Positions 2 to 56,587 of a DNA stretch of 64,000 nucleotides are shown one piece after another. The notes below the pieces were generated by a model, which did not search any database, had not been told where the DNA came from, and worked only from the letters and a program-made list of their open reading frames with translations. Position 1 is the stretch's first letter. Every line of letters starts with the position of its first letter. The position numbers and the translations under genes were made by a program. The stretch is from IMG/VR virus record IMGVR_UViG_3300048065_001187, positions 64,001 to 128,000 of that record; one strand, 5' to 3'. This DNA is from a virus.

Positions 2-700
2 ACTGCCGCAGTCATTAATTCATGCATCACTTATAATGTCAAAAGACTTGTATTTACTTCCTCATTAGCCGTATATGGCCATGGAGACGGAGGCATCTTT
101 AAAGAAGAGCAGACTCCAGCTCCAATTGATCCATATGGTGTTGCAAAATATGCTTGCGAAATGGATATTAAAATCGCTGGCGAACAGCATGGACTGGATT
201 GGTGTATTATCAGACCTCACAATGTATATGGCGCGAAGCAAAACATTTGGGACAGATACAGAAATGTTTTAGGTATTTGGATGTTTCAATATATACAAGG
301 ATTACCAATGTCTATTTTTGGAGATGGAAGCCAGACACGAGCATTTAGCTGTGTTGATGACATTTTATCTCCATTATATAAAGCTGCAATTAATCCAGAA
401 GCTTCAAAAGAAATAATTAATCTTGGTGGAGTAGAAGAGCATTCCATTAATGAAGCCAATAAAATTTTACTTGATATCATTAAAGATGGACAGTCTTCAT
501 ACAAAGAATCTCGCCACGAAGTTAAACACTCTATACCTACATATCAAAAATCTGTAGATATCTTAGGCTTTGAACATACCGTTTCCCTGCAAGAAGGTTT
601 ATCAAAAATGTGGGCATGGGCACAAACACAACCAGTGCGTGAAATTTTCAAATGGGAAAAATACGAGGTTGATAAAGGGATATATGATTTTTGGAAATGA
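2..700 (+). CDS. NAD-dependent epimerase/dehydratase (5' truncated by window edge)
   Basis: Frame open from base 2: ...FTSSLAVYG...DPYGVAKY (YxxxK), RPHNVYG, IFGDGSQTRAF; extended SDR motifs. Confidence 0.9.
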   Translation, partial: TAAVINSCITYNVKRLVFTSSLAVYGHGDGGIFKEEQTPAPIDPYGVAKYACEMDIKIAGEQHGLDWCIIRPHNVYGAKQNIWDRYRNVLGIWMFQYIQGLPMSIFGDGSQTRAFSCVDDILSPLYKAAINPEASKEIINLGGVEEHSINEANKILLDIIKDGQSSYKESRHEVKHSIPTYQKSVDILGFEHTVSLQEGLSKMWAWAQTQPVREIFKWEKYEVDKGIYDFWK

Positions 701-1314
701 AAAGATATGATATAATTAATAGCTTTATATTAAAGCATAATCTGGCAAGATACCTAGAAATTGGTGTTTTCAAAGGTGAATGTATAGAAAAAATCAACAT
801 TAAACATAAAGATGGTGTTGATCCTGGCCATGAAAACGAAATGCACCGCATGGTTAATCACAACACTACTTCTTGTTCGTTTTTCGCTGGTTTTTTTCAT
901 GGCATGTCAGTTGAAAAATATGACATAATTTTTATAGATGGCTTGCATGAATCAGATCAGGTAGATAAAGACATAAAGAATTCCTTATTGTCAACAGCAG
1001 ATAACGGTTTTGTATTAATGCATGACTGCAGTCCTCCTACTAAAAAACATGCTCAAGTTCCTCGTGGATCTCAAGTCGATTGGATGGGGGATGTTTATAA
1101 ATCATTCCTGCGTTCAAGACTCATCAATCCACAGCATAAACATTTCGTAATTGATACTGACTGGGGTGTAGGTGTAATTTTAAAAAACCAACAAGACGAA
1201 AAACTCGACAAAGATTTCATTCAAAAAGGTATCGACTCTTGGGATTTCTTTTGCAAAAACAGGACCGAGTTACTTTCATTGATTTCTGTAGATGATTTTA
1301 AAAAGCATTATTAA
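697..1314 (+). CDS. Class I SAM-dependent methyltransferase (Methyltransf_24-like)
   Basis: YLEIGV, YDIIFIDGLH, MHDC motifs; ATGA overlap with the upstream stop. Confidence 0.8.
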   Translation: MKRYDIINSFILKHNLARYLEIGVFKGECIEKINIKHKDGVDPGHENEMHRMVNHNTTSCSFFAGFFHGMSVEKYDIIFIDGLHESDQVDKDIKNSLLSTADNGFVLMHDCSPPTKKHAQVPRGSQVDWMGDVYKSFLRSRLINPQHKHFVIDTDWGVGVILKNQQDEKLDKDFIQKGIDSWDFFCKNRTELLSLISVDDFKKHY

Positions 1315-2095
1315 TGACAGTTGGTTCTTATCAAATGGCTATATAGATTCGGATTCTTCTATAGATTTACTTGAGCAAAAATACATTCAGCATAATTTAT
1401 CTGTCTTAAAACGATTTAAGCATATTGCTGTAGCCACGACTTATTCTGATTTTTGTGATTCCCTGATCAAAAAGAATGAGGCTTTATGGAAAAACTACTT
1501 CCCAGATTGTCATGTAATTAATGTAGAAAAGAATCGAGGTCATGGCTTTGGAATTGCTGATAGCGAAAATGCATTAATTAATTTATGCAAATCAAAAGGT
1601 GGGAAATGGGCATTAAAAAGCTCAAATGATGTTATATTTAACGAGTCAATATTAGGCATTAATGTCCCTGATGTAGATTTTATTTATTTAAATGGATTCA
1701 AGGTAGAAGATTTAAAAACCTATAATTTTAATCATACAAGACACTATAATAATTATTTTTACCCGCAGACAAATTTTTATTTTATTCGTGCCGACAAAAT
1801 CGATTATTTATACAATGAAGATTATATCAATGAAACATATGAATATATCAAAACAATCAAGGATTATAACAATTGTACATGGGATTATATTGATGGATGG
1901 TCTTGTGAAAATTTCCTAAAACAATGTGTTGAAAGAAATAATCTTAAAAAACATTACTTACTAGACCTAGAATATCATATAAAATTGTGTAAATTTGTAA
2001 GAGAAAGACGAATACTTGACCCAGCTCATAAAAATATGATGATATCAGGTATTTGTCATTTTCAATTTCCAGAACAAAAAATCCACCAGATATGA
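1292..2095 (+). CDS. Hypothetical protein, possibly GT-A fold glycosyltransferase
   Basis: 267 aa ORF in the glycan cluster; NRGHGFG and SNDV resemble degenerate GT-A elements. Confidence 0.4.
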   Translation: MILKSIINDSWFLSNGYIDSDSSIDLLEQKYIQHNLSVLKRFKHIAVATTYSDFCDSLIKKNEALWKNYFPDCHVINVEKNRGHGFGIADSENALINLCKSKGGKWALKSSNDVIFNESILGINVPDVDFIYLNGFKVEDLKTYNFNHTRHYNNYFYPQTNFYFIRADKIDYLYNEDYINETYEYIKTIKDYNNCTWDYIDGWSCENFLKQCVERNNLKKHYLLDLEYHIKLCKFVRERRILDPAHKNMMISGICHFQFPEQKIHQI

Positions 2096-2823
2096 AAGCC
2101 TCAGTAATATTATCATCTTTTAATAATTTGCCTGCATTAAAATTAAGCATTGAAACATTAAAGATTCAAACAGAAAAAGATTTTGAAATAATTATTTCCG
2201 ATGATGGTTCAACAGACGGAACTGTCGAATGGTTACAAGAAGAAAAAGTAAAGCACTTCACGAGACCGAACGAAGGTTATAGACTTGCATATATTTGGAA
2301 CAGGGGCGCAGATTTAGCGTCTGGGGATCGTTTTATATTTGGCAACTCTGATGTTATTTGGGGTCCTGATTTTGTGGCTGAGCATTTGAAATATGCTGAC
2401 AAATTAATTGCAGGGCTTTGCCTATCAATAGCAATTGATAATGTGCCACAAGTTACTCCTGAAAAAATACACCACGATTTCGACTTTATAGATTCACTTA
2501 AATATGGTGATCGCCGCCAAGACTTCATCGATAAACTTAAGCGCCCTTACTTGATTCACGAAAAACCAATACCACCTCGATATATGTATGGAGGCAATTG
2601 GTCTTGCCCTACTCATGTATTCAAACAGATTGAAGGGCTAGACGAAGGTTTCAAAGGTTGGGGTGGCGAAGATTTTGACTTTGCTAGGCGAGCAAAAAAT
2701 GCCGGCAATGAAATTATTATCAATACCAACTGTAAAGGTTATCACTTGGATCACGAAAAAGTCAATAGAGATAACACTCGATCAATAGGAAAAGGTTATT
2801 TTGATGAAAAGTGGAATTCTTAA
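2092..2823 (+). CDS. GT2 glycosyltransferase with GT7 C-terminal-like (GWGGED) domain
   Basis: ASVILSSFN, IIISDDGSTD, GGNWS, GFKGWGGEDFDF, YHLDH. Confidence 0.85.
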   Translation: MKASVILSSFNNLPALKLSIETLKIQTEKDFEIIISDDGSTDGTVEWLQEEKVKHFTRPNEGYRLAYIWNRGADLASGDRFIFGNSDVIWGPDFVAEHLKYADKLIAGLCLSIAIDNVPQVTPEKIHHDFDFIDSLKYGDRRQDFIDKLKRPYLIHEKPIPPRYMYGGNWSCPTHVFKQIEGLDEGFKGWGGEDFDFARRAKNAGNEIIINTNCKGYHLDHEKVNRDNTRSIGKGYFDEKWNS

Positions 2824-3457
2824 AGTTTTTGTATGCTGCCAAAAGTATATTCATCGAGTCGAAGACATAAAAGCTCGAGTTAAAAAATGGAACCTTGGGG
2901 ATTATTTAATATTTACTGGTGGAGAAGAAGAAAAAGGATTAGAAGAAAACGTTATTCAATTAAAGTGCCGCGATTTATATGAAGACCTTCCAGAAAAAAT
3001 GTTTGCTATTTATAAATATTTGGCGGACAATAATTATCCAGAAAAATATAATCATTTTTGGAAAATAGATGATGATGTTGATTGGTTAAGGTGGAACGAG
3101 GGAAGGGAAGTCGATCTTCTAAAATCTCTTGATGGTTACGATTACGCAGGCTTTCAGATCAAAACAAAAGAAGGTAAAAGAGGGTGGCATATAGGTAGGG
3201 TGCGAGAAGATTCCCCTTGGTGTAATAAAAGATACGATGGGATATATGTAGATTGGGCGGCAGGAGGATCAACTTATTTCTTGAGCGGTAAATCCATTGG
3301 CAAGTTTAAAGGACTCGAAGGTATTAATGAAATTAGAGAAAGTGAAATATACGAAGATTTAGCTATCGCAAAGTTTCTTAGGAAATTTGATATATTCCCG
3401 GCGGAAATCAACCCTTGGCCAGACAAGCGAGTACTAAGATTAGACATTAACAAATGA
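2801..3457 (+). CDS. GT31-like (galactosyltransferase/Fringe-like) glycosyltransferase
   Basis: YEDLPEKM, WKIDDD (DxD), AAGGSTYFLS, YEDLAIA. Confidence 0.7.
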   Translation: MMKSGILKVFVCCQKYIHRVEDIKARVKKWNLGDYLIFTGGEEEKGLEENVIQLKCRDLYEDLPEKMFAIYKYLADNNYPEKYNHFWKIDDDVDWLRWNEGREVDLLKSLDGYDYAGFQIKTKEGKRGWHIGRVREDSPWCNKRYDGIYVDWAAGGSTYFLSGKSIGKFKGLEGINEIRESEIYEDLAIAKFLRKFDIFPAEINPWPDKRVLRLDINK

Positions 3458-4026
3458 TCAACCATCAATATAAATGTATATTTATACATGTTGTTAAAAC
3501 AGGCGGGATTTCTGTTTGCAAGGCCTTAAACATGCAAGACAAACAGCTTCATATTTCAGCATCAGAAGCTAAATCTACCACAAAAAACAAATGGAATAAC
3601 TATTTTACTTTCTCGTTCACCAGAAACCCTTGGGACAAGATGGTTTCCCAATATTTTTACAACGGCCAATGTTACACAAGAGATTTTAACGAATATATCG
3701 AGCGTTGGTACAATGACAAAGAATTTATCACAAGTTACAGTTGTGTGCATAGTGACTATTTTGATATTGATCTTGATTTTATTGGTAGGTTTGAAAATCT
3801 TCAAGAAGATTTCGATTTTGTCTGCAAAAAGATTAAAAAGCCATCATGCACTTTACCTCATGAAAATTCTCAACCAATAACTTCTGGACCAAATGGAGAA
3901 AAAGTTTTCCCTAAACCAAAAGAGATACATTATTCTAAGCTTTATAATCAGGACTCAATAGATATGGTCGCTGAAAAATTCTCCAAAGATATTAAATTAT
4001 TTAATTATGAGTTTAATCAAAGTTAA
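3454..4026 (+). CDS. Sulfotransferase (Sulfotransfer_2 family)
   Basis: FIHVVKTGGIS (5'-PSB loop), FTRNPWDKMVSQY (3'-PB), DFIGRFENLQEDF. Confidence 0.85.
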   Translation: MINHQYKCIFIHVVKTGGISVCKALNMQDKQLHISASEAKSTTKNKWNNYFTFSFTRNPWDKMVSQYFYNGQCYTRDFNEYIERWYNDKEFITSYSCVHSDYFDIDLDFIGRFENLQEDFDFVCKKIKKPSCTLPHENSQPITSGPNGEKVFPKPKEIHYSKLYNQDSIDMVAEKFSKDIKLFNYEFNQS

Positions 4027-4798
4027 AAACAAAAGAAGGGGCGGCAATTTATTTCATTTTGCACATTTTATGTGTGATTGCGTTTTCCCTGAAGTTCTCT
4101 CTGGTATACCTGAGCATGACCATGTTTTTAGAATAAAAAATTTAGATCAAACATTGGGTAACTTTGAAAAAATGTATGAAAGCATATTCAATTCTAAAAA
4201 CATGGAAGTAGATCAAACAGCATTTGATAAAATTGAATGCGAAGAAAAAGTCATTGAAAGATTGCCCTCTCATAACAATATAGAAGATTTTAAAAAATTT
4301 ATTGATTTCGTTTTTAGCTCTTTGGATATTGACAAAGCCCCCGATCCTTCTTATCCCGAAGTACTTTTGATTAAAAGAGGAGAAAGAGTAGAGCTAATTT
4401 CTGATTCATATTTAAAAAAACAAAATAAAAATGCAACAAATGGTAAAGAGCGGCGTGAAATCAAAAACATTGATAAAGTAGAAAATATGTTGCATGAAAA
4501 ATATAAAGATAAATTTGGTTCTGTTGTTCTAGAAAATATGGATCTTAAAGATCAAATCATGCATTTTTATCATGCGAAAATTATCGTGTGCGCCCATGGA
4601 GCTTGCATGGCTAATTTATTTTTTTGTCAGCCTGAAACTCTGGTTATCGAAGTCAATGCGCGGACTCCACAAGACAAAAGAATCGGGGCGGGAGTTTATC
4701 CATTTTTTGATACGATTTGCGATGTATTAAATTTAAATCAACATAAGATTGATAGGCACAATGGTTTTAATTTATTGAAGTATATAAATTCTTTATAA
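4007..4798 (+). CDS. GT61 (DUF563) glycosyltransferase
   Basis: NLFHFAHF, RREIKN, QIMHFYHAKIIVCAHGACMANLFF...VIEV. Confidence 0.8.
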   Translation: MSLIKVKNKRRGGNLFHFAHFMCDCVFPEVLSGIPEHDHVFRIKNLDQTLGNFEKMYESIFNSKNMEVDQTAFDKIECEEKVIERLPSHNNIEDFKKFIDFVFSSLDIDKAPDPSYPEVLLIKRGERVELISDSYLKKQNKNATNGKERREIKNIDKVENMLHEKYKDKFGSVVLENMDLKDQIMHFYHAKIIVCAHGACMANLFFCQPETLVIEVNARTPQDKRIGAGVYPFFDTICDVLNLNQHKIDRHNGFNLLKYINSL

Positions 4799-4800
4799 TT

Positions 4801-6186
4801 ATGAGTCGAAAACCAAATGTAATAATTATTCATACCGATGAACATAATCTAAGAACTTTAGGTTGTTATCGAGACTTAATGACAGAAAATCAAGCGTTTC
4901 AGTTCGGTAAAGATGTCAAAGTCGATACCCCAAATATTGATTTTCTTGCTAAAAACGGATGTCTTTTTAATAATTTCATAACTCCATATCCTATATGCCA
5001 ACCTTCCCGTGCTACATTTTTTACTGGTCGCCATTATGACAATGTAATCAATGCTGGGACTGAATGGCAGTCGCAACATTTAAAAAGTAATATAAAAACC
5101 TTTGCTCATTTTTTCAAAAATGCTGGGTATTCAACAAATTACGTAGGGAAATGGCACTTAAATGGAATGAAATCGCCTGACTGGGGAACCTCTCCTAATT
5201 TCGGCTTCGACCATAATCGCTATATGTATAATCGAGGTCATTTTAAAATTGTTGAAGAAACTGGGGATAACATCAGCACTTTTAATTGGGATCCTGATTT
5301 AGCAAATAATAAAAATTACACGACAGATTGGCTTTCAAATAAAGCCATACAAATTATAGAATCTAATAAAACAAAACCATTTTTATTGACTTTATGTATC
5401 CCTGATCCTCATGATCCAAATGTAGTTCGAGAACCTTATAATTCAATGTTTAATAATCTTGTTTTTGATCTACCTCGTACAATGAGGAAATCAGTGAACA
5501 AACCTATGGATCAGCCTTTATGGGTAAAAAATGGCGAATGCGCCAATAAATGGCGTCCAGAATCCATCAAAAAATATTTTGGAATGGTTAAGTGTATTGA
5601 TGATAACGTAGGTAAGATAATTTCTTGCCTCAAAAATATTAATTTGCTTGATAATACAATTTTGGTTTTCACTTCGGATCATGGAGATTTGCTTTACGAA
5701 CATAGATGCCTCAACAAATCATTGCCTTATGATTGCTCTATTAGAGTTCCCATGATTATTTATTATCCCAATAAAATATCGAGCAAAGTGGTAAACACGC
5801 CACACTCAATGCCAGATTTCACTCCAACTGTTCTTGATTTATGCGGAGTAGATTATCAAAAACAATCATTTCACGGCTCAAGTTTTAGTAGTGATATTTT
5901 ATGTTCGGATAAAACCATAGAGAGAGATCGGATAGTTTACAGTAGAACCTGGAACTGGATTGCTATTATTAAAAATTCATTAAAATTAGTTATTTCCATA
6001 GATGATGACCCTTGGCTCTTTGATCAAAAAGTAGACCCTGATGAATTGATTAATTTCTATAATACGAACTCTTACAAAGAGCATATTAAAGAAATGATTA
6101 CAGAAGGTCATTTTCAGCTTAATAAGTATGAACTTAATTATGCTAAACACTCTGATCTTGCATATAAGCTTGAATCCTATCTGTAG
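4801..6186 (+). CDS. Formylglycine-dependent sulfatase without signal peptide
   Basis: KPNVIIIHTD, CQPSR (CxPxR), VGKWHL, FTSDHGD. Confidence 0.93.
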   Translation: MSRKPNVIIIHTDEHNLRTLGCYRDLMTENQAFQFGKDVKVDTPNIDFLAKNGCLFNNFITPYPICQPSRATFFTGRHYDNVINAGTEWQSQHLKSNIKTFAHFFKNAGYSTNYVGKWHLNGMKSPDWGTSPNFGFDHNRYMYNRGHFKIVEETGDNISTFNWDPDLANNKNYTTDWLSNKAIQIIESNKTKPFLLTLCIPDPHDPNVVREPYNSMFNNLVFDLPRTMRKSVNKPMDQPLWVKNGECANKWRPESIKKYFGMVKCIDDNVGKIISCLKNINLLDNTILVFTSDHGDLLYEHRCLNKSLPYDCSIRVPMIIYYPNKISSKVVNTPHSMPDFTPTVLDLCGVDYQKQSFHGSSFSSDILCSDKTIERDRIVYSRTWNWIAIIKNSLKLVISIDDDPWLFDQKVDPDELINFYNTNSYKEHIKEMITEGHFQLNKYELNYAKHSDLAYKLESYL

Positions 6187-6187
6187 A

Positions 6188-6955
6188 ATGAACTTTAAAT
6201 CCTACATGATAACATTCACGAAAGACCCTCGTCGTTTTTCCAATTTTAACGATGTTAAATCTAAATTAAATGGATTGGAATTATTTGAGGCCGCAAATGC
6301 TATTGATTATTATGATATTTTAGAATCAATGGATAGAAAATTTAAATTTCATACCAAAAAATATTTAGACGAATGGAATTGGCTTCCAGGAAAACTTGGC
6401 TGCAATTTATCTTGGTTATTATTATTTAAAAAGATACAATTAAATTACTCTTTTAATCCTGACTTCCCTAAATGGTTTTTAATAGTTGAAGATGATACCG
6501 AATTATTAGAGGAGAATATTGAGGATAAGATTTCGGGCATTATTGAACAAGCAGAAGCTTTGGATAGTTATTTTGTAAAATTTTTAGTTGGCACTGGGAA
6601 AGAAAAATTAAAAAATGGAATCGTTAAATTTTCTCCAGACATTCAGTTCTCAGAGCAGCATCATATAAAAGATAATTTTTATAAACTTATTCCGTCGTGG
6701 GGCAACTGGGCTCAGATATTTCGCATAGAAGCTGTCGAAGCTATTTTATCTGTGATTCCATGGGATGATCATTTAGATTTATTGTTGATGGATTCTCCAG
6801 TGTTTGAAAAGTTAAACGGGGTCGCTTACAAACAAAGCTTTTTCACATATAGTGGCGCAACAAGATTAGAGGAAGCAGACAAGAATTTCGGAAGCTTAAT
6901 ATACAAAAATTCAACTACAGGAAAGGTTGATTGGAGAAAGTTGACAAGATTATGA
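6188..6955 (+). CDS. GT25-like glycosyltransferase
   Basis: RR...FEAAN, GKLGCNLSW, FLIVEDD. Confidence 0.7.
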   Translation: MNFKSYMITFTKDPRRFSNFNDVKSKLNGLELFEAANAIDYYDILESMDRKFKFHTKKYLDEWNWLPGKLGCNLSWLLLFKKIQLNYSFNPDFPKWFLIVEDDTELLEENIEDKISGIIEQAEALDSYFVKFLVGTGKEKLKNGIVKFSPDIQFSEQHHIKDNFYKLIPSWGNWAQIFRIEAVEAILSVIPWDDHLDLLLMDSPVFEKLNGVAYKQSFFTYSGATRLEEADKNFGSLIYKNSTTGKVDWRKLTRL

Positions 6956-7560
6956 CTAAATTTATCTCCTTAGGCTCAAGTTGCTGTGTCAAGCACCATA
7001 TTGATCTTTTCTGCGGAAAAAGTGCAACTCTTCCATTTGACTGGGTAGTTATTGACTTTAAATCTGTGCTAGATCTAATCAGTTGCAGTAACCCTGAAAA
7101 TGTATTTAGCATAGACAATTTGGTTAATTCATCCAAAATTAATCCAGACCTTAAATATGTTTATAGCATTAAAAATTTAAGCCTCTATGAATTTTATCAT
7201 GACTTAAAAGAAGGATCGAGCAAAGAAGATATAATAAACTTTACTCAAAAATACCAAAGAAGATATCATAGATTGATCGATATTATTTCAACTGTTAATG
7301 ATATTTGCTTTATCCACCACGGAAGTTATAACCAAAATGATATTGATGAATTTTGCGAAAAGATTCGACTGATTAATCCTAAACTCGATTTTAAAGTTAT
7401 TATTATTGATAAAGAAAATTCAGTTAATAATTATTCTTGCGATCACACAATTTGTGTTCGAGAAAATTCATTTATAAAATCACAACCCAGCCAAGACGAA
7501 CACTGGTGGAAATTCAATCACATTGATTGGGTTAAAATATTTAATTTGTACTCAAAATGA
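6952..7560 (+). CDS. DUF1796-like putative papain-type peptidase/esterase
   Basis: FISLGSSC, LPFDW, FYHD, KYQRRYHR. Confidence 0.65.
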   Translation: MTKFISLGSSCCVKHHIDLFCGKSATLPFDWVVIDFKSVLDLISCSNPENVFSIDNLVNSSKINPDLKYVYSIKNLSLYEFYHDLKEGSSKEDIINFTQKYQRRYHRLIDIISTVNDICFIHHGSYNQNDIDEFCEKIRLINPKLDFKVIIIDKENSVNNYSCDHTICVRENSFIKSQPSQDEHWWKFNHIDWVKIFNLYSK

Positions 7561-8147
7561 TATCTCACGATTTAAAATGCGTTTTCGTTCATATACCGAA
7601 ATGTGCAGGCACTTCAGTTTATAAAAGTTTAAAATTAGACTTCTTAGGTTCAGGACATGCTCCAGCATCAAAACATTCTGAGTTTTTAAACCAAGGTTAT
7701 TTTTCTTTTTCTTTTGTTCGCAATCCATGGGATCGTATAGCTTCTTGCTATCGTTATTTTAAATCCATGAACCCTGGGGGCAGATGGTACAAAGGCAATC
7801 AAAAGCTTGCTGATTTAGCTAAGCAAATTTCTTTCGATGAATTCGTGAGAAGAGTTCCAGAGTTTCAGAAGATGATGATTAGAGAAGAAGGTTCTGTTCG
7901 TTCTGGAATTCACCTTCAGCCATTCTCCTATTTCCTGGATCAAGAAATTGATTATATTGGTAAAATGGAAAATATTAATCGTGACTATATTAAAATTTGC
8001 CGCCACTTAAATATCAGAATTAGACCCCTCAAAAGAGTCAACACTACTAATTCTTCGAATTATCAAGAATTATATATAGAAGAAACAAAGAATATCGTGT
8101 ATAATATATATCAAGAAGATATAAAAAAATACAATTACGAATTTTAA
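7557..8147 (+). CDS. Sulfotransferase (Sulfotransfer_2 family)
   Basis: FVHIPKCAGTS, FVRNPWDRIASCY, DYIGKME; paralogue of 3454-4026. Confidence 0.88.
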   Translation: MISHDLKCVFVHIPKCAGTSVYKSLKLDFLGSGHAPASKHSEFLNQGYFSFSFVRNPWDRIASCYRYFKSMNPGGRWYKGNQKLADLAKQISFDEFVRRVPEFQKMMIREEGSVRSGIHLQPFSYFLDQEIDYIGKMENINRDYIKICRHLNIRIRPLKRVNTTNSSNYQELYIEETKNIVYNIYQEDIKKYNYEF

Positions 8148-8149
8148 TT

Positions 8150-8713
8150 ATGGAACCATATCAATTTGACAAAGGGTCTGCAAGGTTATCATTACTTGAC
8201 AAAATTAATGAAGGTGATATTTGCGCAGAGATAGGAGTTTTAAAAGGCGACTATGCTAATCTAATTTCTTTACAGCCAATTTCAAAATTGTACCTTATAG
8301 ATCCTTGGGTTAGTATAGCAGATGTTCCTAATCGCTGGCATGCAGTTATGCAAGAAGAAATGGATAGTTACAAGACTAGCGTGGTTAACCGATTTTCAGA
8401 TAACGATAAAGTTCAAGTTATTGAAAAATATTCTGCGGATACGGTTTCTGATTTTGAAGATTATTACATGGATTGGATATACTTAGACGCTAATCATAGT
8501 TATGATTTTGTAAAACAAGATTTGAACAACTGGTGGGCTAAATTAAAATCAAATGGATATTTTTGCGGGAATGCATACACAGATAGCCCTATCGCAAGAA
8601 ATGTTTTAGACTTTGGTGTCATTCCTGCGGTTGATAATTTCCTGGAAGATAAATTTGAAGAAATAAATCATTTCGAAGTTATTGATTCTCAGTATATAAT
8701 TCAAAAAAAATAG
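8150..8713 (+). CDS. Class I SAM-dependent methyltransferase (Methyltransf_24-like)
   Basis: AEIGVLKG, LIDPW, DWIYLDANHSY. Confidence 0.82.
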   Translation: MEPYQFDKGSARLSLLDKINEGDICAEIGVLKGDYANLISLQPISKLYLIDPWVSIADVPNRWHAVMQEEMDSYKTSVVNRFSDNDKVQVIEKYSADTVSDFEDYYMDWIYLDANHSYDFVKQDLNNWWAKLKSNGYFCGNAYTDSPIARNVLDFGVIPAVDNFLEDKFEEINHFEVIDSQYIIQKK

Positions 8714-8719
8714 CTCTCA

Positions 8720-9553
8720 ATGAAAAGGATGGAGGACATTCTTCTTTTATTCAACGAAAGCTTTTTCAGTAATCAAGGCATCGTATCAGTTGCATGCGAA
8801 GACGATATTCCGGATAGAGATTCAATTCTCTTTATCGGTAGTCACAGGCACACATTTAATTTAAAACATTTAACGAAATACCTCGAAGTTATCGAATCAC
8901 GTCCTTTTACTTATTCAATAATTTGCGGAAAAACAGATGGCTGTTTAAATAAAAATATCGATATACCAAAAAACGTCAAAAGAATTTATTGCAATAATAT
9001 TAATTATGCTCACGATGTGATAAAATTTTTTCCTATGGGTAGAGATTTTAGAGCCAGAGACTCTTTCCATAAAAACGACAAACCAAGAAAGCGAGATATT
9101 TTAGTTTATGGTAATTTTTCATTAAATACAAGCTGGATAAGAAAAGCTATTTATTTGTTTACAAAAGACAATCCCATGTATACTCTTGAAAATATTGGCT
9201 CAAGAGGAACAAGAGGAGAAAAACGTTCTTGGTTTATGTCTAATGATCAATTTTTTAATAGATTGCGAAGCAGTAAATTTGTAATGTGTCCGCGAGGAAC
9301 GGCACCTGATTCTTTCAGGTTTTATGACACTCTTTATTGCGGTGCAATTCCTATTGTCGTTAAAGACTCGATGTACGATCAATTTGATCACTCAGAGTTA
9401 CCAATTCTTTTCCTGGATCATCAAAAAGATTATCAAAAAATTAGTGAAGATTTTTTAAATGAGCAATATAATATATTATCTCAAAAAATAAAACCTTATT
9501 ATAAAACATTAGATTTCAATCATTGGATAAAAAGAATTAAATTAGAATTATGA
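8720..9553 (+). CDS. Exostosin-family (GT47) glycosyltransferase
   Basis: SKFVMCPRGTAPDSFRFYDTLYCGAIPIV. Confidence 0.8.
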   Translation: MKRMEDILLLFNESFFSNQGIVSVACEDDIPDRDSILFIGSHRHTFNLKHLTKYLEVIESRPFTYSIICGKTDGCLNKNIDIPKNVKRIYCNNINYAHDVIKFFPMGRDFRARDSFHKNDKPRKRDILVYGNFSLNTSWIRKAIYLFTKDNPMYTLENIGSRGTRGEKRSWFMSNDQFFNRLRSSKFVMCPRGTAPDSFRFYDTLYCGAIPIVVKDSMYDQFDHSELPILFLDHQKDYQKISEDFLNEQYNILSQKIKPYYKTLDFNHWIKRIKLEL

Positions 9554-10542
9554 AAATATTAGTTGGAGGAGCAGGCGGCTTTATAGCCGGTTATTTAGTT
9601 AAAGATTTATTGGCACAAGGGCATGAAGTTATCGCCGCCGACATTAAGCCCGCAGATATGTGGTATCAGACGTTTGATGGTGCAGAAAATCATGCGGATT
9701 GTAATCTGCAAGAAAAAGATCATTGTTACAAATTAAGTGTCGGTGCTGATCGCATCTACAATCTTGCCTGCAATATGGGCGGCATGGGGTTTGTTGAAAA
9801 CAATCAAGCTCTTTGCATGGAGAACGTTCTTATTCAGACTCACATGATGATGGCTGCGAGAGACAATGGTGTCAAAGAAGTTTTATATAGCTCAACTGCT
9901 TGTGTTTATCCAGCCGCAATTCAATCTGAAATTAAAGACGAATCATCTCAGGCACTTAAAGAATCTGATGTATTTCCAGCTAATCCAGATGATGGATATG
10001 GTTGGGAAAAATTATTTAGTGAATTGATTACTTATTATTACGGAAAAGATTTTGGTATTGATTCACGCACTTGTCGCTACCATAATGTTTATGGGCCATT
10101 TGGAACATGGCGTGGTGGTCGTGAAAAAGCTCCTGCTGCAATTTGTCGCAAAGTTATAGAGGCTAAGATGAGCGGCAAGCATGAAATTGAAATCTGGGGT
10201 GATGGCGAACAAACTCGCTCGTTTATGTTTATTGACGACTGTATCACTGGCATGGAATTGATGTGGCAAAAGGGTGACTCTCGCCCACTCAACCTTGGAA
10301 GTGATCGTATGGTTTCCATCAATCAGCTTGTTAATATTGTAGAAAATATCGGCGGCATTAAATTAAAAAGAAACTACAATTTGAATGCCCCACAAGGTGT
10401 TCGTGGTCGTAACAGCGATAACACGATGATTAAAGAAGTGTTAGGCTGGGCACCATCGATCACTCTTGAAGATGGACTTGAAAAAACATACGAGTGGATT
10501 TATAATCAAATGCAGAACTGTAAAGATTCTGATGGATATTAA
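9550..10542 (+). CDS. GDP-mannose 3,5-epimerase-like NAD-dependent epimerase
   Basis: GGAGGFIA, NLACNMGGMGF, STACVYP, YGWEK, GGREKAPAAICRK, QGVRGRNSDN. Confidence 0.88.
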   Translation: MKILVGGAGGFIAGYLVKDLLAQGHEVIAADIKPADMWYQTFDGAENHADCNLQEKDHCYKLSVGADRIYNLACNMGGMGFVENNQALCMENVLIQTHMMMAARDNGVKEVLYSSTACVYPAAIQSEIKDESSQALKESDVFPANPDDGYGWEKLFSELITYYYGKDFGIDSRTCRYHNVYGPFGTWRGGREKAPAAICRKVIEAKMSGKHEIEIWGDGEQTRSFMFIDDCITGMELMWQKGDSRPLNLGSDRMVSINQLVNIVENIGGIKLKRNYNLNAPQGVRGRNSDNTMIKEVLGWAPSITLEDGLEKTYEWIYNQMQNCKDSDGY

Positions 10543-22715: not shown

Positions 22716-22730
22716 GTGTACATTATGGGA

Positions 22731-49367: not shown

Positions 49368-49382
49368 TTATATACCATAAAT

Positions 49383-50930
49383 ATGAATTACAAAGTTTTA
49401 TCTCTTTTCTCGAATGTAGGTTTTGGTGAATTTTACTTGAACGATTTACCGCTTGATGTAGTTGTCGCAAATGAACTAGAGCAAGATCGTGCAAACTTTT
49501 ATAATGTCCTGCATCCATCCACAAAGATGATTAACGGCGACATTACAGATAGTTCTATTAGATCTGAGATAATTTCTGAATGCAAGAAACGCGGGCCAAT
49601 TGACATTGTGATGGCTACACCTCCATGCCAAGGTATGAGTCTAGCAAATGCAACAAAAAGCCCTAACGATGAGAGAAACACCTTAATAATTCATGCTATG
49701 GATTTATTTAAAGAGGTTGGGGCTAAGTATATGTTAATAGAAAATGTGCCCAATATGCCAAATACATATATTTCGCACAAAGACTATGATGAACCTGTAA
49801 AAATTTTAGATTTCATTAATGATTCTATTCCTGAGGGTGCATATTGTGTTTCAAAAGTTTTGAATGGTAAAAATTTTGGGACTGCACAAGAGAGAAAGAG
49901 GTCTATTACTCTAATTTCCACAGAATACAAGTGGGATCATCCTAAACCTGATGACAATATTTTGTGCCTAGACGATGTTATTCGTGATGAAGTCAAATTT
50001 CCTAGCTTAGACGAAGATTCTTCGGATATTCCTTGGCATTTTTTATCCAAACAAAACCCTCGACACATTGATTGGATGAAATATGCACCTTCAGGCAAGA
50101 GTGCTTATTTTAATGAGAAAGATCACTACCCTTGTCACGAAGAAGAAAACAAGAAAGGAAGCGGGACTACAATAATTGAATATGTCAAAAAAACGAATGG
50201 AGAAAATGGTTGGCACACTAATCCTCCTGTTTTAATTGATGAACACGGAGTCGTTACTGACGCACCTTTTACAGAAGAGACTATAGACGGCAAAGAACTT
50301 TTAGCCATTGAGATACCCGAAGGATACAAACTAAAAAGAGAAATTTATGGATTTACTACTGCTTATAAAAGAATGGATTGGCATAAGCCTTCTACAACAG
50401 TGACAATGACCAATGGCTCCATCTCAAGCCAAAACAATGTTCATCCAGGCAAGGAAAATGGTGATGGAACTTATTCTGACGCAAGAGTATTCTCGATTAG
50501 AGAGCTGCTTGCAGTTTGCGGCTTGCCGATTAATTTACTTGACGAATTTTGCGAAAAAAAGAAACCAAACACAAAGTATAAATATTGCTCAGGTAGTTGG
50601 GGATACCAATACCATCCTACTTTTATCAGGAAAGTTCTTGGTGAAATGTTTTTACCTAAAATGTCTTTAGAAATTATGAAAACCCTACCTTTATTCCAAG
50701 AAAATAAAATTATGCCTGAATTAAAAGAAGAAACGCTTAAAGATTTTGCACCTGCAAACTCGGAAACTATCATTAAAGCCCAAGGCAATAGCCATGTAGA
50801 ACTGATGCAGAAAGTGAAGAACTGCCGTCAAGAAAATATATTATTAAGATCTGAAAATAAAGAACTGAAACTTAAACTAGAGCAATTTGAAATTGAAAAG
50901 GCTGAATTAAATAGTATATTTGATGATTGA
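49383..50930 (+). CDS. DNA (cytosine-5) methyltransferase
   Basis: LSLFSNVG (I), TPPCQGMS (IV), IENV (VI), QERKR (VIII), RVFSIREL (IX), LGEMF (X). Confidence 0.92.
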   Translation: MNYKVLSLFSNVGFGEFYLNDLPLDVVVANELEQDRANFYNVLHPSTKMINGDITDSSIRSEIISECKKRGPIDIVMATPPCQGMSLANATKSPNDERNTLIIHAMDLFKEVGAKYMLIENVPNMPNTYISHKDYDEPVKILDFINDSIPEGAYCVSKVLNGKNFGTAQERKRSITLISTEYKWDHPKPDDNILCLDDVIRDEVKFPSLDEDSSDIPWHFLSKQNPRHIDWMKYAPSGKSAYFNEKDHYPCHEEENKKGSGTTIIEYVKKTNGENGWHTNPPVLIDEHGVVTDAPFTEETIDGKELLAIEIPEGYKLKREIYGFTTAYKRMDWHKPSTTVTMTNGSISSQNNVHPGKENGDGTYSDARVFSIRELLAVCGLPINLLDEFCEKKKPNTKYKYCSGSWGYQYHPTFIRKVLGEMFLPKMSLEIMKTLPLFQENKIMPELKEETLKDFAPANSETIIKAQGNSHVELMQKVKNCRQENILLRSENKELKLKLEQFEIEKAELNSIFDD

Positions 50931-51801
50931 AGATTTTATACAAAATGTAAAGCATTTAAACCACTCTAATCAGCGAGACGGGGAATCTTACTACCATGCC
51001 TACTTGTGCGACAGTCAAAAAGAGCACATTGAAACAATAAGAAGATGTTTGAATAAACAAAAAAATCTTTTTATTCCAACCGTCAAAAAGACTGAGGGCA
51101 AATTTAATAATAATAAATTCCGACAAGTTTTTAGTCTTGCTAAGTATTTAGATGATGACAAATTAACTAGCCTAAGAACATTTCTTAGTCTTGGGGGCGA
51201 TAATCAATCTGTGCCTTATTTGTTTGCGTCTATATTATTTAATTGTCATACCGAAAAGACTATTGATTTTATTGTTAAAGCTGTTGGCTCCAATAATAAT
51301 TTGCAAAAGCGTCACCCAATTCAGTTTGCATACGATTTAGTTACAGGATGGATTCCAGAACATTTCTTAGCTAATTGTTTTGATTTAGAAAAATCTGGCT
51401 GCGATAGTGATTACAAATTAGCCAAAGGTTCATCGATAAATGGCTCTCAGGATTTTATTTTCAAGGGAGAGAAGATTGAATTATCAATGGATTATACGGG
51501 CACTATAAAATATAAAAATAAATTCCACCTAAGATATAATAAATGGAATAAAATCCAAAAAGATAAAAGCAACCTATTGATTATATGTACTAAATCTTGG
51601 AAGTATTATTTTTATTCAGCAGATACTTATTTAAATAATATAAGACATAAATACTTAGATAGAATTGAATCGTGGAGTGATCGCCAATCTGTTGCTGGCT
51701 ATGAACTCACAGACTGGGAAAAGCTAGAACCTATAGCATTAAACCCTTCAAACCTGTCGAACTCTTTTAATAATATACTTTCCTTAAAAAATGAAAACTA
51801 A
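50920..51801 (+). CDS. Hypothetical protein, candidate restriction-type endonuclease
   Basis: Overlaps the MTase; QDF...IELSMD could be a divergent PD-(D/E)XK core. Confidence 0.4.
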   Translation: MMIEDFIQNVKHLNHSNQRDGESYYHAYLCDSQKEHIETIRRCLNKQKNLFIPTVKKTEGKFNNNKFRQVFSLAKYLDDDKLTSLRTFLSLGGDNQSVPYLFASILFNCHTEKTIDFIVKAVGSNNNLQKRHPIQFAYDLVTGWIPEHFLANCFDLEKSGCDSDYKLAKGSSINGSQDFIFKGEKIELSMDYTGTIKYKNKFHLRYNKWNKIQKDKSNLLIICTKSWKYYFYSADTYLNNIRHKYLDRIESWSDRQSVAGYELTDWEKLEPIALNPSNLSNSFNNILSLKNEN

Positions 51802-51858
51802 AAAAATTTTCCAAAGGCAAAGTTGAATTATAGTGGACTATATATTATAATAAAATGT

Positions 51859-52627: not shown

Positions 52628-52637
52628 TGGACTATAT

Positions 52638-52945: not shown

Positions 52946-52954
52946 ATTTAATTC

Positions 52955-52983
52955 TTGATCGAATATTATTCTTGTGGTATAGT
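52955..52983 (+). promoter_or_regulatory. Sigma70-type promoter, leaderless
   Basis: TTGATC-17-TATAGT with TGn; ATG 7 nt downstream. Confidence 0.65.
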
Positions 52984-52990
52984 GTCATCC

Positions 52991-53979: not shown

Positions 53980-54003
53980 ATAATAAATTGTGTATATACT
54001 TAT

Positions 54004-54234
54004 GTGAAGTTTTCTTTTGGTGAAGTTGTAATGTTAATCGGGCTAGCCCTACTAGCTATCATCGCATACAATCAATATAATCAGCTCGAATACGCAAAAG
54101 ATACAATACAGATTCAACATGAGGCTATTAATAAGCAACAAGAGCTGATCAACCATCAGATAAGATATATTGGAATAATGGAGTCTCAGGCTGTCAATTC
54201 ACGCCAAAACCCTATCTATAGAGGCCCATCATGA
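54004..54234 (+). CDS. Small TM plus coiled-coil protein
   Basis: N-terminal TM; GTGTA 9 nt upstream. Confidence 0.6.
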   Translation: MKFSFGEVVMLIGLALLAIIAYNQYNQLEYAKDTIQIQHEAINKQQELINHQIRYIGIMESQAVNSRQNPIYRGPS

Positions 54235-54608
54235 CCTTAAGAGAGCTGATAGAGTCCAACAATTACAAAAAAGTCTTCAATTACCTCTATCAAACTTATT
54301 TTAAAGGTAAAAAAAGCAGCATAGTAATAGAATTAGATTTAAAATTTTATAAATTATGGTCTGATCTGAAAAAGCTTAAAAAATCAAATCAAGATTTAAT
54401 AAAAATTTACATAACTAAAACTCCAGGCGAAGACGGTTTTATAGATGTTTGTTTATTTGATGAAATAAAAGATGAAATTTTACCTCTTGATTTTCTAGGC
54501 TCTCAAGATATAATAGATACAGAGGTTTATAAAGCATTGAATATTAATGATTACGAAACTTTGGCGCATATATTATATTATTTAAATAGTTTAGAAGATA
54601 TTACATGA
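54231..54608 (+). CDS. Hypothetical protein
   Basis: 125 aa ORF, ATGA-coupled. Confidence 0.6.
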   Translation: MTLRELIESNNYKKVFNYLYQTYFKGKKSSIVIELDLKFYKLWSDLKKLKKSNQDLIKIYITKTPGEDGFIDVCLFDEIKDEILPLDFLGSQDIIDTEVYKALNINDYETLAHILYYLNSLEDIT

Positions 54609-55003
54609 AAAAAGTAGCAATTAGTGGTTATTTTGATCCAATTCACATTGGGCATTTAGAATATATCAGGCTTGCGCGTGAGCTTGGAGATTATTTAATT
54701 GTAATTGTGAATAACGACAAACAAGCAGTCCTTAAGAAGGGCAAGTCTTTTATGTGTGAAGATGATCGTCTGGCGATAGTCGCTCAAATCAAAGGGGTGG
54801 ACGAAGCAGTTATGTCTATTGATGATGATGAAACTGTATGCAAGACACTTGATTTAATCAAGCCAGACATCTTTGCTAACGGCGGAGATCGCAGTAATTC
54901 AGAAATTCCAGAATTTAAAATATGTAAAGAAAATGGCACTCAAGTCGTGGATGGATTAGGTAACAAGATCCGATCATCCTCAGAACTTACGGGCATCAAA
55001 TGA
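54605..55003 (+). CDS. Cytidylyltransferase-family (TagD/RfaE-like) nucleotidyltransferase
   Basis: SGYFDPIHIGH, VNND, ANGGDR, KIRSSS. Confidence 0.88.
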   Translation: MKKVAISGYFDPIHIGHLEYIRLARELGDYLIVIVNNDKQAVLKKGKSFMCEDDRLAIVAQIKGVDEAVMSIDDDETVCKTLDLIKPDIFANGGDRSNSEIPEFKICKENGTQVVDGLGNKIRSSSELTGIK

Positions 55004-55509
55004 ATTTATACAATCTACCTACTCATGCTAAAAGTCCTCGAATCGTTAACGCAGTCATTGAAATTGAAGAGGGTTCAAAAAACAAATATGAATATGATGG
55101 AGATTTGGGGGTATTCATGTATGATAGATGTCTCAATTCTGCTATGGTTTATCCCGCAAGTTATGGTTTCATTCCTGGGACTTTATGCGAAGATGGCGAT
55201 CCTTTAGATATAATGGTGATCAGCCCCGAACCTATCAAAAGAGCAACAGTTCTTGAGGCAAAAGTTCTTGGCGTTTTGGATATGGAGGACGAAGGAGAAA
55301 AAGATTACAAAGTTATAGCTGTGCCAAATTTTTATACCAGAAAATATAGCAATATCAAAGATGTAGAAGATAGTTTTCTTAAAATTGCAAAGAATTTTTT
55401 TGCTCACTATAAAGATTTGAGCATGAGTGGGGATCGAGTTAAAGTATTTGAGTGGCATCATAAACAATATGCCTATGATATCATCGATAATAGGCTTACT
55501 AATAAATAA
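55000..55509 (+). CDS. ppa: Inorganic pyrophosphatase (family I)
   Basis: NKYEYD, YPASYGFIP, DGDPLD, DEGEKDYK, FFAHYK. Confidence 0.95.
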   Translation: MNLYNLPTHAKSPRIVNAVIEIEEGSKNKYEYDGDLGVFMYDRCLNSAMVYPASYGFIPGTLCEDGDPLDIMVISPEPIKRATVLEAKVLGVLDMEDEGEKDYKVIAVPNFYTRKYSNIKDVEDSFLKIAKNFFAHYKDLSMSGDRVKVFEWHHKQYAYDIIDNRLTNK

Positions 55510-55604
55510 TATGGAAACATTAATTGTAATTGGGGTACTAGCAATCCTTTACGGGGCCTGCGCTAAAGAAGCATATAAATGGTAAATAATGTGTAACTCT
55601 CTAT

Positions 55605-55799
55605 GTGAGAGGAGTCTTTGTATTACTAATTGTTATTTTATGTAGCAGTTGTATGGTCAAAAAAGCGCCACCCGAAGAAAAAGATTGGCTCAAAATTTAC
55701 GAAAAAGAGCTACAAATCGCAAGAGAAAACAATGATATAGAGGCTTGGACTTATTTTTGGGGCGAATATATAAAAGAGTTACAAAATAAGAATAAATGA
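55605..55799 (+). CDS. Small lipoprotein-like protein
   Basis: Hydrophobic N-terminus with CSSC; GTGTA upstream. Confidence 0.55.
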   Translation: MRGVFVLLIVILCSSCMVKKAPPEEKDWLKIYEKELQIARENNDIEAWTYFWGEYIKELQNKNK

Positions 55800-56587
55800 A
55801 AATAACTAAAGAATTTATCGATAAGCTATTAATTTTTGGCGCCGAACTTTCTAAAGAAGTTTGCCAAATACAAGAGCTCGGCTTCGAAACTTTACAAAAA
55901 GACGATAAAAGTCCATTAACAGAAGCCGACCTTCATTCAAACAAAAGAATTTGTGAATTTTTGGCGGCGAATACAGATACTTCAAATATCATATCCGAAG
56001 AAAATAAAGAGGTTCAATATGAAGACCGCGCCAAATGGGATTATTATTGGCTCATAGACCCCATAGACGGCACAAAAGAGTTCGTAAAGGGAGGGGATGA
56101 CTTCTGCATTAATATTGCCCTATGCAAGGGCTCAGAGCCTATATTTGGCTATGTAGCTTGTCCAAAGAAGCAAGACCAATACTTCGCTATAAAAGATCGG
56201 GGTGCTTTTAAAAACGGCGAACCAATTTACGCCAAATATTCTTACAATCCTCAAGGCGAACCAATCAAAGTAGTTGCAAGTAAATCCCATTTGAATAAAG
56301 AGACAGAGGAATTTATTAATAATTTAAAAAAGAATCACGAGGTTGAGACCTTAAACATAGGTAGTTCATTAAAATTTTGCTTAGTAGCAGAGGGCGAAGC
56401 CCACATATATCCTAGGTTTGGGCCTACTATGGAGTGGGATACTTGTGCGCCGCAAATCATTGCAGAAGAGAGTGGCGCAGATGTCTGTATTGCAGAAAAT
56501 AGTCAGCCATTAGAATATAATAAAAAGAATTTACTTAACCCTTTTTTTATTGTTTCTTGTAAAATTTTAAAATATTTCTTGACTTGA
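55796..56587 (+). CDS. cysQ: 3'(2'),5'-bisphosphate nucleotidase
   Basis: SPLTEAD, ISEE, WLIDPIDGTKEF, GSSLKFC, TMEWDT. Confidence 0.94.
   Translation: MKITKEFIDKLLIFGAELSKEVCQIQELGFETLQKDDKSPLTEADLHSNKRICEFLAANTDTSNIISEENKEVQYEDRAKWDYYWLIDPIDGTKEFVKGGDDFCINIALCKGSEPIFGYVACPKKQDQYFAIKDRGAFKNGEPIYAKYSYNPQGEPIKVVASKSHLNKETEEFINNLKKNHEVETLNIGSSLKFCLVAEGEAHIYPRFGPTMEWDTCAPQIIAEESGADVCIAENSQPLEYNKKNLLNPFFIVSCKILKYFLT

Follow-up and report, generated by a model that had tools for sequence, protein, structure and literature searches.

We analysed a 64,000-nt stretch of DNA (hereafter, the window) that covers bases 64001-128000 of the IMG/VR record IMGVR_UViG_3300048065_001187, a genome of 150,766 bp that is classed as complete by CheckV. 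It is the genome of an uncultured, marine, tailed phage. The phage carries a large glycan cluster with seven sulfotransferase genes and, elsewhere in the window, genes for a fusion of an adenosine 5'-phosphosulfate (APS) kinase-like domain with a small HIGH nucleotidyltransferase domain, for a family-I inorganic pyrophosphatase (PPase), and for the nucleotidase CysQ. We propose, with a probability of roughly 0.55, that the phage makes its own sulfated glycan and supports this with a module for the compound that donates the sulfate, 3'-phosphoadenosine 5'-phosphosulfate (PAPS).

In our explanation, about 40 clustered genes would assemble a sulfated, O-methylated glycan in the host cytoplasm during infection, and upstream genes of the cluster would probably also add pyruvyl and fucosyl groups. 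Seven PAPS-dependent sulfotransferases would act in the assembly. The host would supply part of the donor, since CysC is present in its likely lineage, and a three-part phage module would probably boost and recycle it. In the fusion protein, the NadM-like HIGH domain would adenylylate sulfate to APS, and the APS-kinase-like domain would phosphorylate APS to PAPS. The PPase would remove the released pyrophosphate, and CysQ would hydrolyse the inhibitory by-product 3'-phosphoadenosine 5'-phosphate (PAP). Cytoplasmic trimming of sulfate esters would fall to a sulfatase that lacks a signal peptide. We take virion proteins as the acceptor, a guess made because no lipid-carrier or export genes were found.

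Gene cluster for a probable sulfated glycan

Gene families were called with Pfam and NCBIfam profiles. Seven open reading frames (ORFs) in the genome matched Sulfotransfer_2 (PF03567), all over the cut-off, and none of 14 control genomes gave a match, so this set is not a chance pattern. In the alignment, all seven kept the lysine motif for 5'-phosphosulfate binding (5'-PSB; e.g. IPKSGGT, IPKAAGTS) and the 3'-phosphate-binding (3'-PB) motif RxPxx(R/K)xxS, typically RNPxDRxxS, with K for R in one copy. Because both motifs are present in all seven proteins, the donor should be a 3'-phosphorylated nucleotide, that is, PAPS. A first-pass annotation of the window had proposed that, for a sulfated, methylated glycan, the phage itself carries the steps of transfer and editing; these steps are indeed phage-encoded, and it is highly probable that the phage synthesises a sulfated glycan.

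The part of the cluster inside the window is an operon at 2-10542, in which the genes are co-oriented with stops overlapping starts. It makes up the final 10.5 kb of a co-oriented cluster that spans 44 kb (genome 30242-74542) and occupies about 29% of the genome. The cluster reaches 34 kb upstream of the window start, and its only interruptions are ribonucleotide reductase and some small genes. All genes of the operon lie on the plus strand. It begins with the C-terminal part of an NAD-dependent sugar epimerase/dehydratase, which is cut by the window start (2-700; full ORF at genome 63711-64700), and a Methyltransf_24 methyltransferase (691-1314). These are followed by a GT2 glycosyltransferase (2053-2823; 72 bits on Pfam), the sulfotransferase ST6 (3454-4026; 40.5 bits, cut-off 22) with VKTGGIS as a 5'-PSB-like motif and RNPWDKMVS as the 3'-PB motif, a GT61 glycosyltransferase (4007-4798; 64.8 bits on Pfam), a sulfatase, which is described below, and a possible GT25-like glycosyltransferase (6128-6955; 20 bits, under the Pfam cut-off of 24). 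Further downstream are the sulfotransferase ST7 (7557-8147; 47.4 bits) with IPKCAGTS and RNPWDRIAS, a second Methyltransf_24 methyltransferase (8150-8713), a GT47/exostosin-like glycosyltransferase (8720-9553; 39.8 bits, cut-off 33.4), and a second NAD-dependent sugar epimerase/dehydratase (9550-10542; 130 bits). The family profiles confirmed most genes listed in the first-pass annotation, including the two sulfotransferases, the sulfatase, the two epimerases, and the two methyltransferases of the operon. Its count of five recognisable glycosyltransferases was too high: three are firm (GT2, GT61, and GT47-like) and one is weak (GT25, sub-cut-off). It did not list the upstream continuation of the cluster, the HIGH nucleotidyltransferase gene that overlaps the PPase start, or the DUF1501 gene beside the fusion. 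Overall, the gene inventory is larger than it had listed, and its interpretation is supported in part.

A Pfam census of the 41 ORFs of the cluster upstream of the window revealed five further Sulfotransfer_2 proteins and six epimerase/dehydratases. The same ORFs add a GDP-mannose dehydratase, a UDP-galactopyranose mutase, a UDP-sugar dehydrogenase, a pyruvyl transferase, two GT90 proteins, a NodZ-like enzyme, a GT77-like enzyme, a CMP-sugar synthetase, and another HIGH nucleotidyltransferase. In some relatives of the phage, single open frames of 412-620 amino acids (aa) contain two or three Sulfotransfer_2 domains (G001:C1:184293-186140, G002:C1:73573-74763, and G014:C1:64986-66197).

Domain architecture of the fusion protein

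The fusion gene (P0001) lies at 45793-46599 on the minus strand and encodes 268 aa. Residues 1-140 form a trimmed APS-kinase-like domain, and residues 148-255 a truncated NadM-like HIGH nucleotidyltransferase domain. The N-terminal domain scored 47.7 bits on the Pfam APS_kinase profile (PF01583; cut-off 21.1), with residues 6-87 aligned to profile positions 5-91 of 152. When a profile of the 21-member family was searched against the PDB, the top 23 matches were all APS kinases (E 6e-14 to 5e-9). Both the hidden Markov model (HMM) and PDB alignments of this domain end at residue 85-91.

An AlphaFold model of the fusion (pLDDT 83.7) was used for structural comparison. Foldseek ranked APS kinases first for the kinase domain. 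With VIA-align, APS kinases gave Z scores of 16.8-17.9 (128-142 residues aligned; root-mean-square deviation 2.1-2.6), compared with 16.1 for gluconate kinase, about 13 for shikimate kinases, 10-11 for dephospho-CoA kinase, and 10.3 for nicotinamide riboside (NR) kinase. The GLPGSGKT P-loop, R38, F47, R52, and F77-x-x-P80 are invariant in the 21 family members. R38, F47, R52, and F77/P80 align at the DGDNxR, LGF, EDR, and FISP positions, respectively, of PAPSS1 and APE1195, motifs of APS kinases that we take to be APS-binding. Sequence and model together indicate that the N-terminal domain is specifically APS-kinase-like. A related phage has a stand-alone kinase domain of 145 aa (G030:C1:21906-22313).

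The C-terminal domain, modelled with a pLDDT of 84, has the motifs GRYQPFHIGH, NPY/NPF, and SATKIR, which correspond to the NadM-type signatures GRFQPFHxGH, NPF, and ISGTxIR. Its scores on the NCBIfam profiles for nicotinamide mononucleotide (NMN) adenylyltransferase (NMNAT) were only 20-33 bits against cut-offs of 127-409. Between the two blocks that align to archaeal NMNAT 1F9A, it has about 21 residues where 1F9A has about 46, that is, about 25 fewer. The ATP sulfurylase (Sat) of T. thermophilus (1v47) aligned over 116 residues (Z 7.4), and the phage protein has H160xGH163 and S247-A-T-K-I-R252. We rejected the fold of this domain as a means to rank Sat, NMNAT, and phosphopantetheine adenylyltransferase (PPAT) as candidates, and because it is a generic HIGH nucleotidyltransferase fold, the substrate is not decidable from structure. 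A candidate counterpart of the Sat 'GRD' loop, YGRDVGY, was also rejected, since HMMER aligns this stretch to the 'GYEV' segment of NMNAT 1f9a.

The same nucleotidyltransferase domain is joined to a canonical APS kinase

The fusion family is large: at 90% clustering it has more than 7,500 homologues, and among 50% representatives, 476 clusters have E <1e-30. A search of representatives recovered stand-alone kinase forms, stand-alone nucleotidyltransferase forms, and a second union of the two domain types (P0204). In P0204, the nucleotidyltransferase domain retains all motifs of the family and shares 44% identity with the phage copy. Its partner is an APS kinase of canonical type and full length (211.9 bits), in which DGDN, FISP, and the complete lid are present. 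This form, hereafter NTase-CysC, is about 310 aa long and represents a large, cellular marine family. The case that the small domain may supply APS draws its greatest strength from these two independent unions with a domain of the APS-kinase type.

One carrier of NTase-CysC was studied at the genome level (L266:10001-10933, GCA_003209955.1). The gene is on a 98.8-kb contig of a 1.2-Mb genome with 33% guanine plus cytosine (GC). No Sat or CysD match was found in this genome, which may be incomplete, and the gene is present in only two of 16 genomes of the carrier's family. Its neighbours encode an MFS/PTR2 transporter, a 660-aa protein without a family match, an RTX-like giant protein, and TPR/2-oxoglutarate (2OG)-Fe(II) oxygenase proteins. 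An HMM of the phage sulfotransferases had no match among the neighbours of the bacterial gene.

From the domain pairing, the fusion is a candidate for a miniature PAPS synthase whose type has not been described before, and we lean slightly towards the view that it makes PAPS. A broader scenario falls somewhat short of even odds and is put forward tentatively. In it, the 115-aa NadM-like domain would be a hitherto unrecognised, minimal class of ATP sulfurylase, forming with a trimmed or canonical APS kinase a one-gene PAPS synthase of 268-311 aa. Marine phages and streamlined, SAR11-like bacteria lacking Sat/CysDN would commonly carry this enzyme. In the phage, it would run a private PAPS cycle with PPase and CysQ, sulfating a virion-borne glycan aimed at a Verrucomicrobial host that degrades sulfated polysaccharides.

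PPase, CysQ, and gene order in related phages

The PPase gene is at 55000-55509 (plus strand) and scored 162.8 bits on PF00719 (cut-off 23.5), as expected from its first-pass assignment as a pyrophosphatase; on NCBIfam PRK01250, it scored 154 bits against an equivalog cut-off of 200. CysQ, the 3'(2'),5'-bisphosphate nucleotidase (PAP phosphatase), is encoded at 55796-56587 (plus strand). It passed the equivalog cut-off of TIGR01331, albeit marginally (229.7 versus 228.8), and scored 168.7 bits on Pfam Inositol_P. The presence of CysQ thus agrees with the earlier call, and the protein quite probably clears PAP.

Gene order was examined in 80 related viral loci. Six loci have PPase no more than about 1 kb away from the fusion, with at least four distinct arrangements among them, and CysQ is 5 nt downstream of the fusion in G020. 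A sulfotransferase-like ORF was located within 3 kb of the fusion in 22 loci. In distant subgroups (41-48% identity), where this proximity is not near chance, a sulfotransferase is the next gene to the fusion, and it is the sole one on the contig in G016 and G017. In L014, the fusion heads an operon in which glycosyltransferase and sulfotransferase genes alternate (fusion, glycosyltransferase, sulfotransferase, glycosyltransferase, sulfotransferase). One syntenic block consists of three small ORFs and then PPase; the gene that closes it is CysQ in our phage and the fusion in G006. All five phage records with CysQ (four relatives and this phage) also carry the fusion. The link of the fusion, PPase, CysQ, and sulfotransferases is thus visible in the gene order of relatives and in the joining of the same nucleotidyltransferase domain to a canonical APS kinase. 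These results suggest that a PAPS module is probably made up of the fusion together with PPase and CysQ.

Other neighbours of the fusion were also recorded. In distant phages, radical-SAM, 2OG-Fe(II) oxygenase, or Asp/Asn-hydroxylase-like genes flank the fusion (L070:24-1304 and 5128-5745, L056:2416-2997, L055:1780-2349), and 2OG-Fe(II) oxygenases flank the bacterial NTase-CysC gene also. In the 56-kb Salvoviruses (L007, L089, and L090: Xylella phages Salvo and Bacata, and Clavibacter phage 33), the fusion is annotated only as 'kinase' and lies near MazG and 'cysteine dioxygenase'.

Counter-evidence and alternative functions of the fusion

Several observations weigh against the synthesis of PAPS by the fusion and against a dedicated module. 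In the kinase domain, DGDN is replaced by N33-A34-D35, and the first Asp is changed to Asn in at least 90% of members. In human PAPSS1, both DGDN aspartates are essential, and D87A abolishes activity (PMC8528679). In place of the lid of about 32 residues (KGLYKKAR ... FTGI), the family has an invariant stretch, GR(Y/F)xDTNKMF, of about 12 residues, and the protein scored 43.1 bits on NCBIfam apsK (TIGR00455) against a cut-off of 138.7. The first-pass annotation described an APS kinase fused to a HIGH nucleotidyltransferase; the fusion is real and the kinase domain has an APS-kinase-like fold, but the DGDN motif, the full lid, and a score above the apsK cut-off are missing. The C-terminal domain is closest by sequence to NadM NMN adenylyltransferases (PDB 2qjt, E 4e-9; 1f9a, E 4.7e-6), and the fold Z scores give no separation (PPAT 9.4, NadR 8.8, NadM 8.1-8.6, ATP sulfurylase 7.4). 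The family's kinase also occurs fused to a PF00483 sugar-1-phosphate nucleotidyltransferase (P0254), a hint in another direction.

Canonical sulfate activation was not detected. Sat-type ATP sulfurylase (PF01747) had no match in the phage or 30 relatives, while controls matched in five genomes; CysD-type PF01507 had no match in this phage, CysN itself not being searched; and PF01583 matched only the fusion itself. The PPase gene is 8 kb from the fusion and on the opposite strand. It is translationally coupled to another gene, which encodes a HIGH nucleotidyltransferase resembling RfaE domain II (54605-55003, plus strand; 77 bits, sub-cut-off) and whose stop overlaps the PPase start. The earlier suggestion that PPase pulls the ATP-sulfurylase step could not be upheld as it stood, since no recognisable ATP sulfurylase is encoded and the PPase has this other partner. 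Because no canonical enzyme matched, the sulfurylase step rests on the putative activity of the NadM-like domain.

Distribution across relatives also argues for caution. No significant association emerged when the presence/absence of the genes was compared between 20 fusion-bearing records and 10 related records that lack the fusion. Sulfotransferases were present in 16 of the 20 and in nine of the 10, respectively (complete genomes: 11/13 and 4/4), PPase in 11/20 versus 2/10, and CysQ in 4/20 versus 0/10. The co-occurrence that the first-pass annotation had proposed as a check was thus weak, as sulfotransferases are near-universal in the clade with or without the fusion, and the trends for PPase and CysQ are non-significant; our reading therefore leans on gene order and domain fusions. 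In close relatives, the proximity of sulfotransferases to the fusion is near chance; the sulfotransferase-bearing glycan cluster takes up about one-fifth of the genome. The complete phages G012 and G019 have the fusion and no Sulfotransfer_2. The cultured Salvoviruses carry the fusion and no clear Sulfotransfer_2 (Bacata has one sub-threshold match of 13.6 bits), and their fusion start overlaps the stop of a COG3236/NADAR-like gene. Finally, canonical CysC was found in four of five candidate host genomes. Because sulfotransferases occur without the fusion, the fusion occurs without sulfotransferases, and likely hosts have CysC, phage-encoded PAPS supply is an accessory function at most, not a requirement.

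Much of this would fit an explanation in which host PAPS alone feeds the sulfotransferases. The fusion would then be a NadR- or NadM-like adenine-dinucleotide enzyme, for example an NMNAT with a nucleotide kinase that serves NAD(P) supply or counter-defence, PPase would serve the nucleoside diphosphate (NDP)-sugar steps, and CysQ would only relieve PAP inhibition. NadM/NMNAT proteins are the only significant sequence matches of the C-terminal domain, and they share its GRFQPFHxGH-type and ISxTxIR motifs. The lost first Asp of DGDN, the fusion-bearing phages without sulfotransferases, the coupling to a COG3236/NADAR-like gene in Salvoviruses, the sulfotransferases of relatives without the fusion, host CysC, and the RfaE-II-like partner of PPase all point the same way. 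We nevertheless regard this explanation as unlikely. The kinase domain is specifically APS-kinase-like, not NR-kinase- or NAD-kinase-like, and the C-terminal domain is about 25 residues short of NMNAT 1F9A between the aligned blocks. The explanation also leaves aside that the same nucleotidyltransferase domain is joined to canonical APS kinase in a large family and that the fusion recurrently adjoins sulfotransferases and CysQ.

Another alternative is that the fusion activates a sugar or sugar acid (cf. HldE, FKP), with the kinase phosphorylating the sugar and the HIGH domain making an NDP-sugar for the cluster. The fold match to gluconate kinase nearly equals that to APS kinase (Z 16.1 versus 17.9), but the sequence similarity is to APS kinases only, and the GntK model matched the P-loop alone. 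P0254 shows the kinase paired with a sugar-1-phosphate nucleotidyltransferase, PPase adjacency suits any nucleotidyltransferase, and the fusion is often amid glycan genes, even heading the L014 operon; in the 56-kb siphoviruses, however, no annotated glycan genes are within the surrounding 9-13 kb. Moreover, sugar activation leaves the CysQ adjacency and the fusion to canonical APS kinase unexplained. We consider it very improbable.

Possible targets of the glycan

Predicted membrane segments do not exceed four in any ORF of the genome, and no candidate Wzx, Wzy, WecA, or ligase was found. Because lipid-carrier and export genes were not found, cytoplasmic transfer to proteins, as in mycobacteriophages, is favoured, and we tentatively name the virion as the target, at somewhat less than even odds. 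The choice between virion and cell, and the idea that a sulfated coat acts as bait or shield, are speculative.

Independently of the question of the PAPS donor, the glycan might instead remodel the infected-cell envelope via host export, for superinfection exclusion or receptor masking, or the glycosyltransferases might hypermodify phage DNA. To our knowledge, known phage DNA sugar modifications are mono- to oligosaccharides, and forty genes with seven sulfotransferases are far beyond them. Seroconversion by phages and phage DNA glycosylation both have precedent (bioRxiv 10.1101/2023.12.21.572611). The C5 cytosine methyltransferase gene at 49383-50930 would suit the latter, and no acceptor protein was identified by sequence. 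An envelope target is disfavoured by the lack of Wzx-, Wzy-, WecA-, or ligase-like polytopic membrane proteins in the genome. A search for Tet/JBP dioxygenase gave no match in the phage, but it was uninformative, as the control genomes gave none either. On balance, a target other than the virion seems somewhat less likely than not.

Sulfatase, DUF1501 protein, and likely host

The sulfatase gene of the operon (4801-6186, plus strand) encodes a type I (Cys-type) sulfatase with an SGSH_C domain (PF00884, 171.2 bits) and the formylglycine motif C-Q-P-S-R-A-T-F-F-T-G (CxPSR). It has no signal peptide, and the first beta-strand is right at the N-terminus. Counterparts in Opitutales have a hydrophobic signal peptide followed by a near-identical PNVIIIxTDEHNLRTLGCYR stretch, and the phage protein starts where the mature part of the Opitutales counterpart starts (L269:159-1598, L270:137-1549). 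Because the host signal peptide is missing and the mature start matches, the phage sulfatase appears to be a signal-less derivative of an exported Opitutales enzyme, and it is presumably cytoplasmic. No gene for the formylglycine-generating enzyme was found in the phage genome; therefore, maturation of the sulfatase would depend on the host.

A DUF1501 protein (sulfatase-like, alkaline-phosphatase superfamily; 373 bits) with a twin-arginine (Tat) signal is encoded at 44443-45723 (plus strand), tail to tail with the fusion. It adjoins the fusion in six related loci and lies beyond an intervening PPase in two more (eight in total). It might serve in periplasmic desulfation. The nearest cellular homologues of DUF1501 (67-74% identity) are all from marine Opitutia/Opitutales/Puniceicoccaceae, with Planctomycetes next at 50% or less. 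Counterparts of the phage sulfatase at 45-47% identity were found in four of five marine Opitutales genomes, and the candidate host genomes have 46-84 sulfatase-family matches each. These host-like genes suggest that the host is probably a marine member of Opitutales, sulfatase-rich Verrucomicrobia of the Planctomycetes-Verrucomicrobia-Chlamydiae (PVC) group. This fits the conditional guess of the first-pass annotation, namely a PVC host that degrades sulfated polysaccharides. A 210,818-bp contig labelled as a Cellvibrionales metagenome-assembled genome (MAG) (L183, JAYQMT010000004.1) has a phage-like length and a DUF1501 gene with 93% identity to that of the phage; most probably, a related phage was mis-binned there among bacterial contigs.

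Other features of the phage genome

The genome (GC 32-39%) encodes a tail-sheath homologue (phrog_15433, E 1e-54) and a virion structural protein, as well as a DnaE-type polymerase, DnaB, primase, a RecA-like protein, a Lon-like protease, and nucleases. A search for tRNA genes was negative. The phage isolate collection contained no close relative, and the best matches of the DnaE-type polymerase were about 30% identical. The Lon-like ATP-dependent protease (22716-25127; 803 aa; phrog_4871, E 3.9e-227) is encoded immediately after the DnaE-type polymerase. At 49383-51801, the gene for the 515-aa C5 cytosine DNA methyltransferase overlaps an ORF of 293 aa without a family match; the pair is syntenic in G006 and may be a DNA-modification module. 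An ORF of 387 aa at 17313-18476 has about four predicted membrane segments and weak matches to tetraspanin and spore-photoproduct-lyase; it is the sole such ORF among those of at least 100 aa outside other genes.

Significance and comparison with known systems

If the fusion works as proposed, it would represent a new and very small family of sulfate-activating enzymes with thousands of marine homologues. This would revise where PAPS synthesis is thought possible, including streamlined marine bacteria that are regarded as being without sulfate activation, and PAPS could be regenerated with a compact biocatalyst. With a phage that produces sulfated glycans set against a likely host specialised in degrading them, the ocean carbon and sulfur cycles would provide a testable case of virus-host interaction through glycans. 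Virus-encoded glycosylation itself is already known. In the literature on phage sulfotransferase, PAPS, APS kinase, and Verrucomicrobia phages, we found no such system, nor any account of phages with self-made sulfated glycans or with enzymes of their own for PAPS synthesis and recycling.

Among known enzymes, metazoan PAPSS1/2 (1x6v, 2ofx) likewise have an N-terminal APS-kinase fold and a C-terminal HIGH-superfamily nucleotidyltransferase, and the kinase superposes with a Z of 17.3. The phage protein differs in its length (268 aa versus about 620), in a NadM-like C-terminal domain without a PF01747 match or a PUA-like domain, and in the shortened lid and the change of DGDN to NAD(x). Sat-CysC and CysN-CysC proteins (Aquifex 2gks, Thiobacillus 3cr8, M. 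tuberculosis CysNC) also unite a sulfate-activating enzyme, which is putative here, with APS kinase, and the marine NTase-CysC (P0204) has the domain order of Sat-CysC. The adenylyltransferase partner here is about 115 aa and, unlike in those proteins, unrelated at the family level to Sat or CysD/N. NadM and NadR (2qjt, 1f9a, 1lw7) are the best sequence match of the C-terminal domain and share GR(F/Y/W)QP(F/W)HxGH, NPF, and IS(G/A)TxIR, and NadR also pairs an NMNAT-type domain with a P-loop kinase. However, the domain order of NadR is opposite, the phage kinase is APS-kinase-like and not ribosylnicotinamide kinase (RNK)-like, and the gene neighbours are sulfation genes.

Among viruses, the giant viruses of eukaryotes (chloroviruses and mimiviruses) have large sugar-nucleotide and glycosyltransferase sets of their own, which act in the cytoplasm on virion components. 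The phage resembles them in its large virus-encoded glycan gene set; we know of no sulfation or PAPS module in giant viruses. Glycosylating mycobacteriophages reportedly have few glycosyltransferases each, whereas the phage described here has about 40 genes, including nucleotide-sugar synthesis, seven sulfotransferases, a sulfatase, and putative PAPS-cycle enzymes. In mycobacteriophages, structural proteins are reported to be glycosylated by phage-encoded glycosyltransferases, with no genes dedicated to export (Freeman et al. 2023, PMC10527164, cited in PMC12619734). Viral auxiliary metabolic genes for sulfur, such as cysH, are similar in that phage genes act on activated sulfate. Those genes serve assimilatory reduction; here, in contrast, there is no CysH/CysD-type gene, and PAPS would go to transferases.

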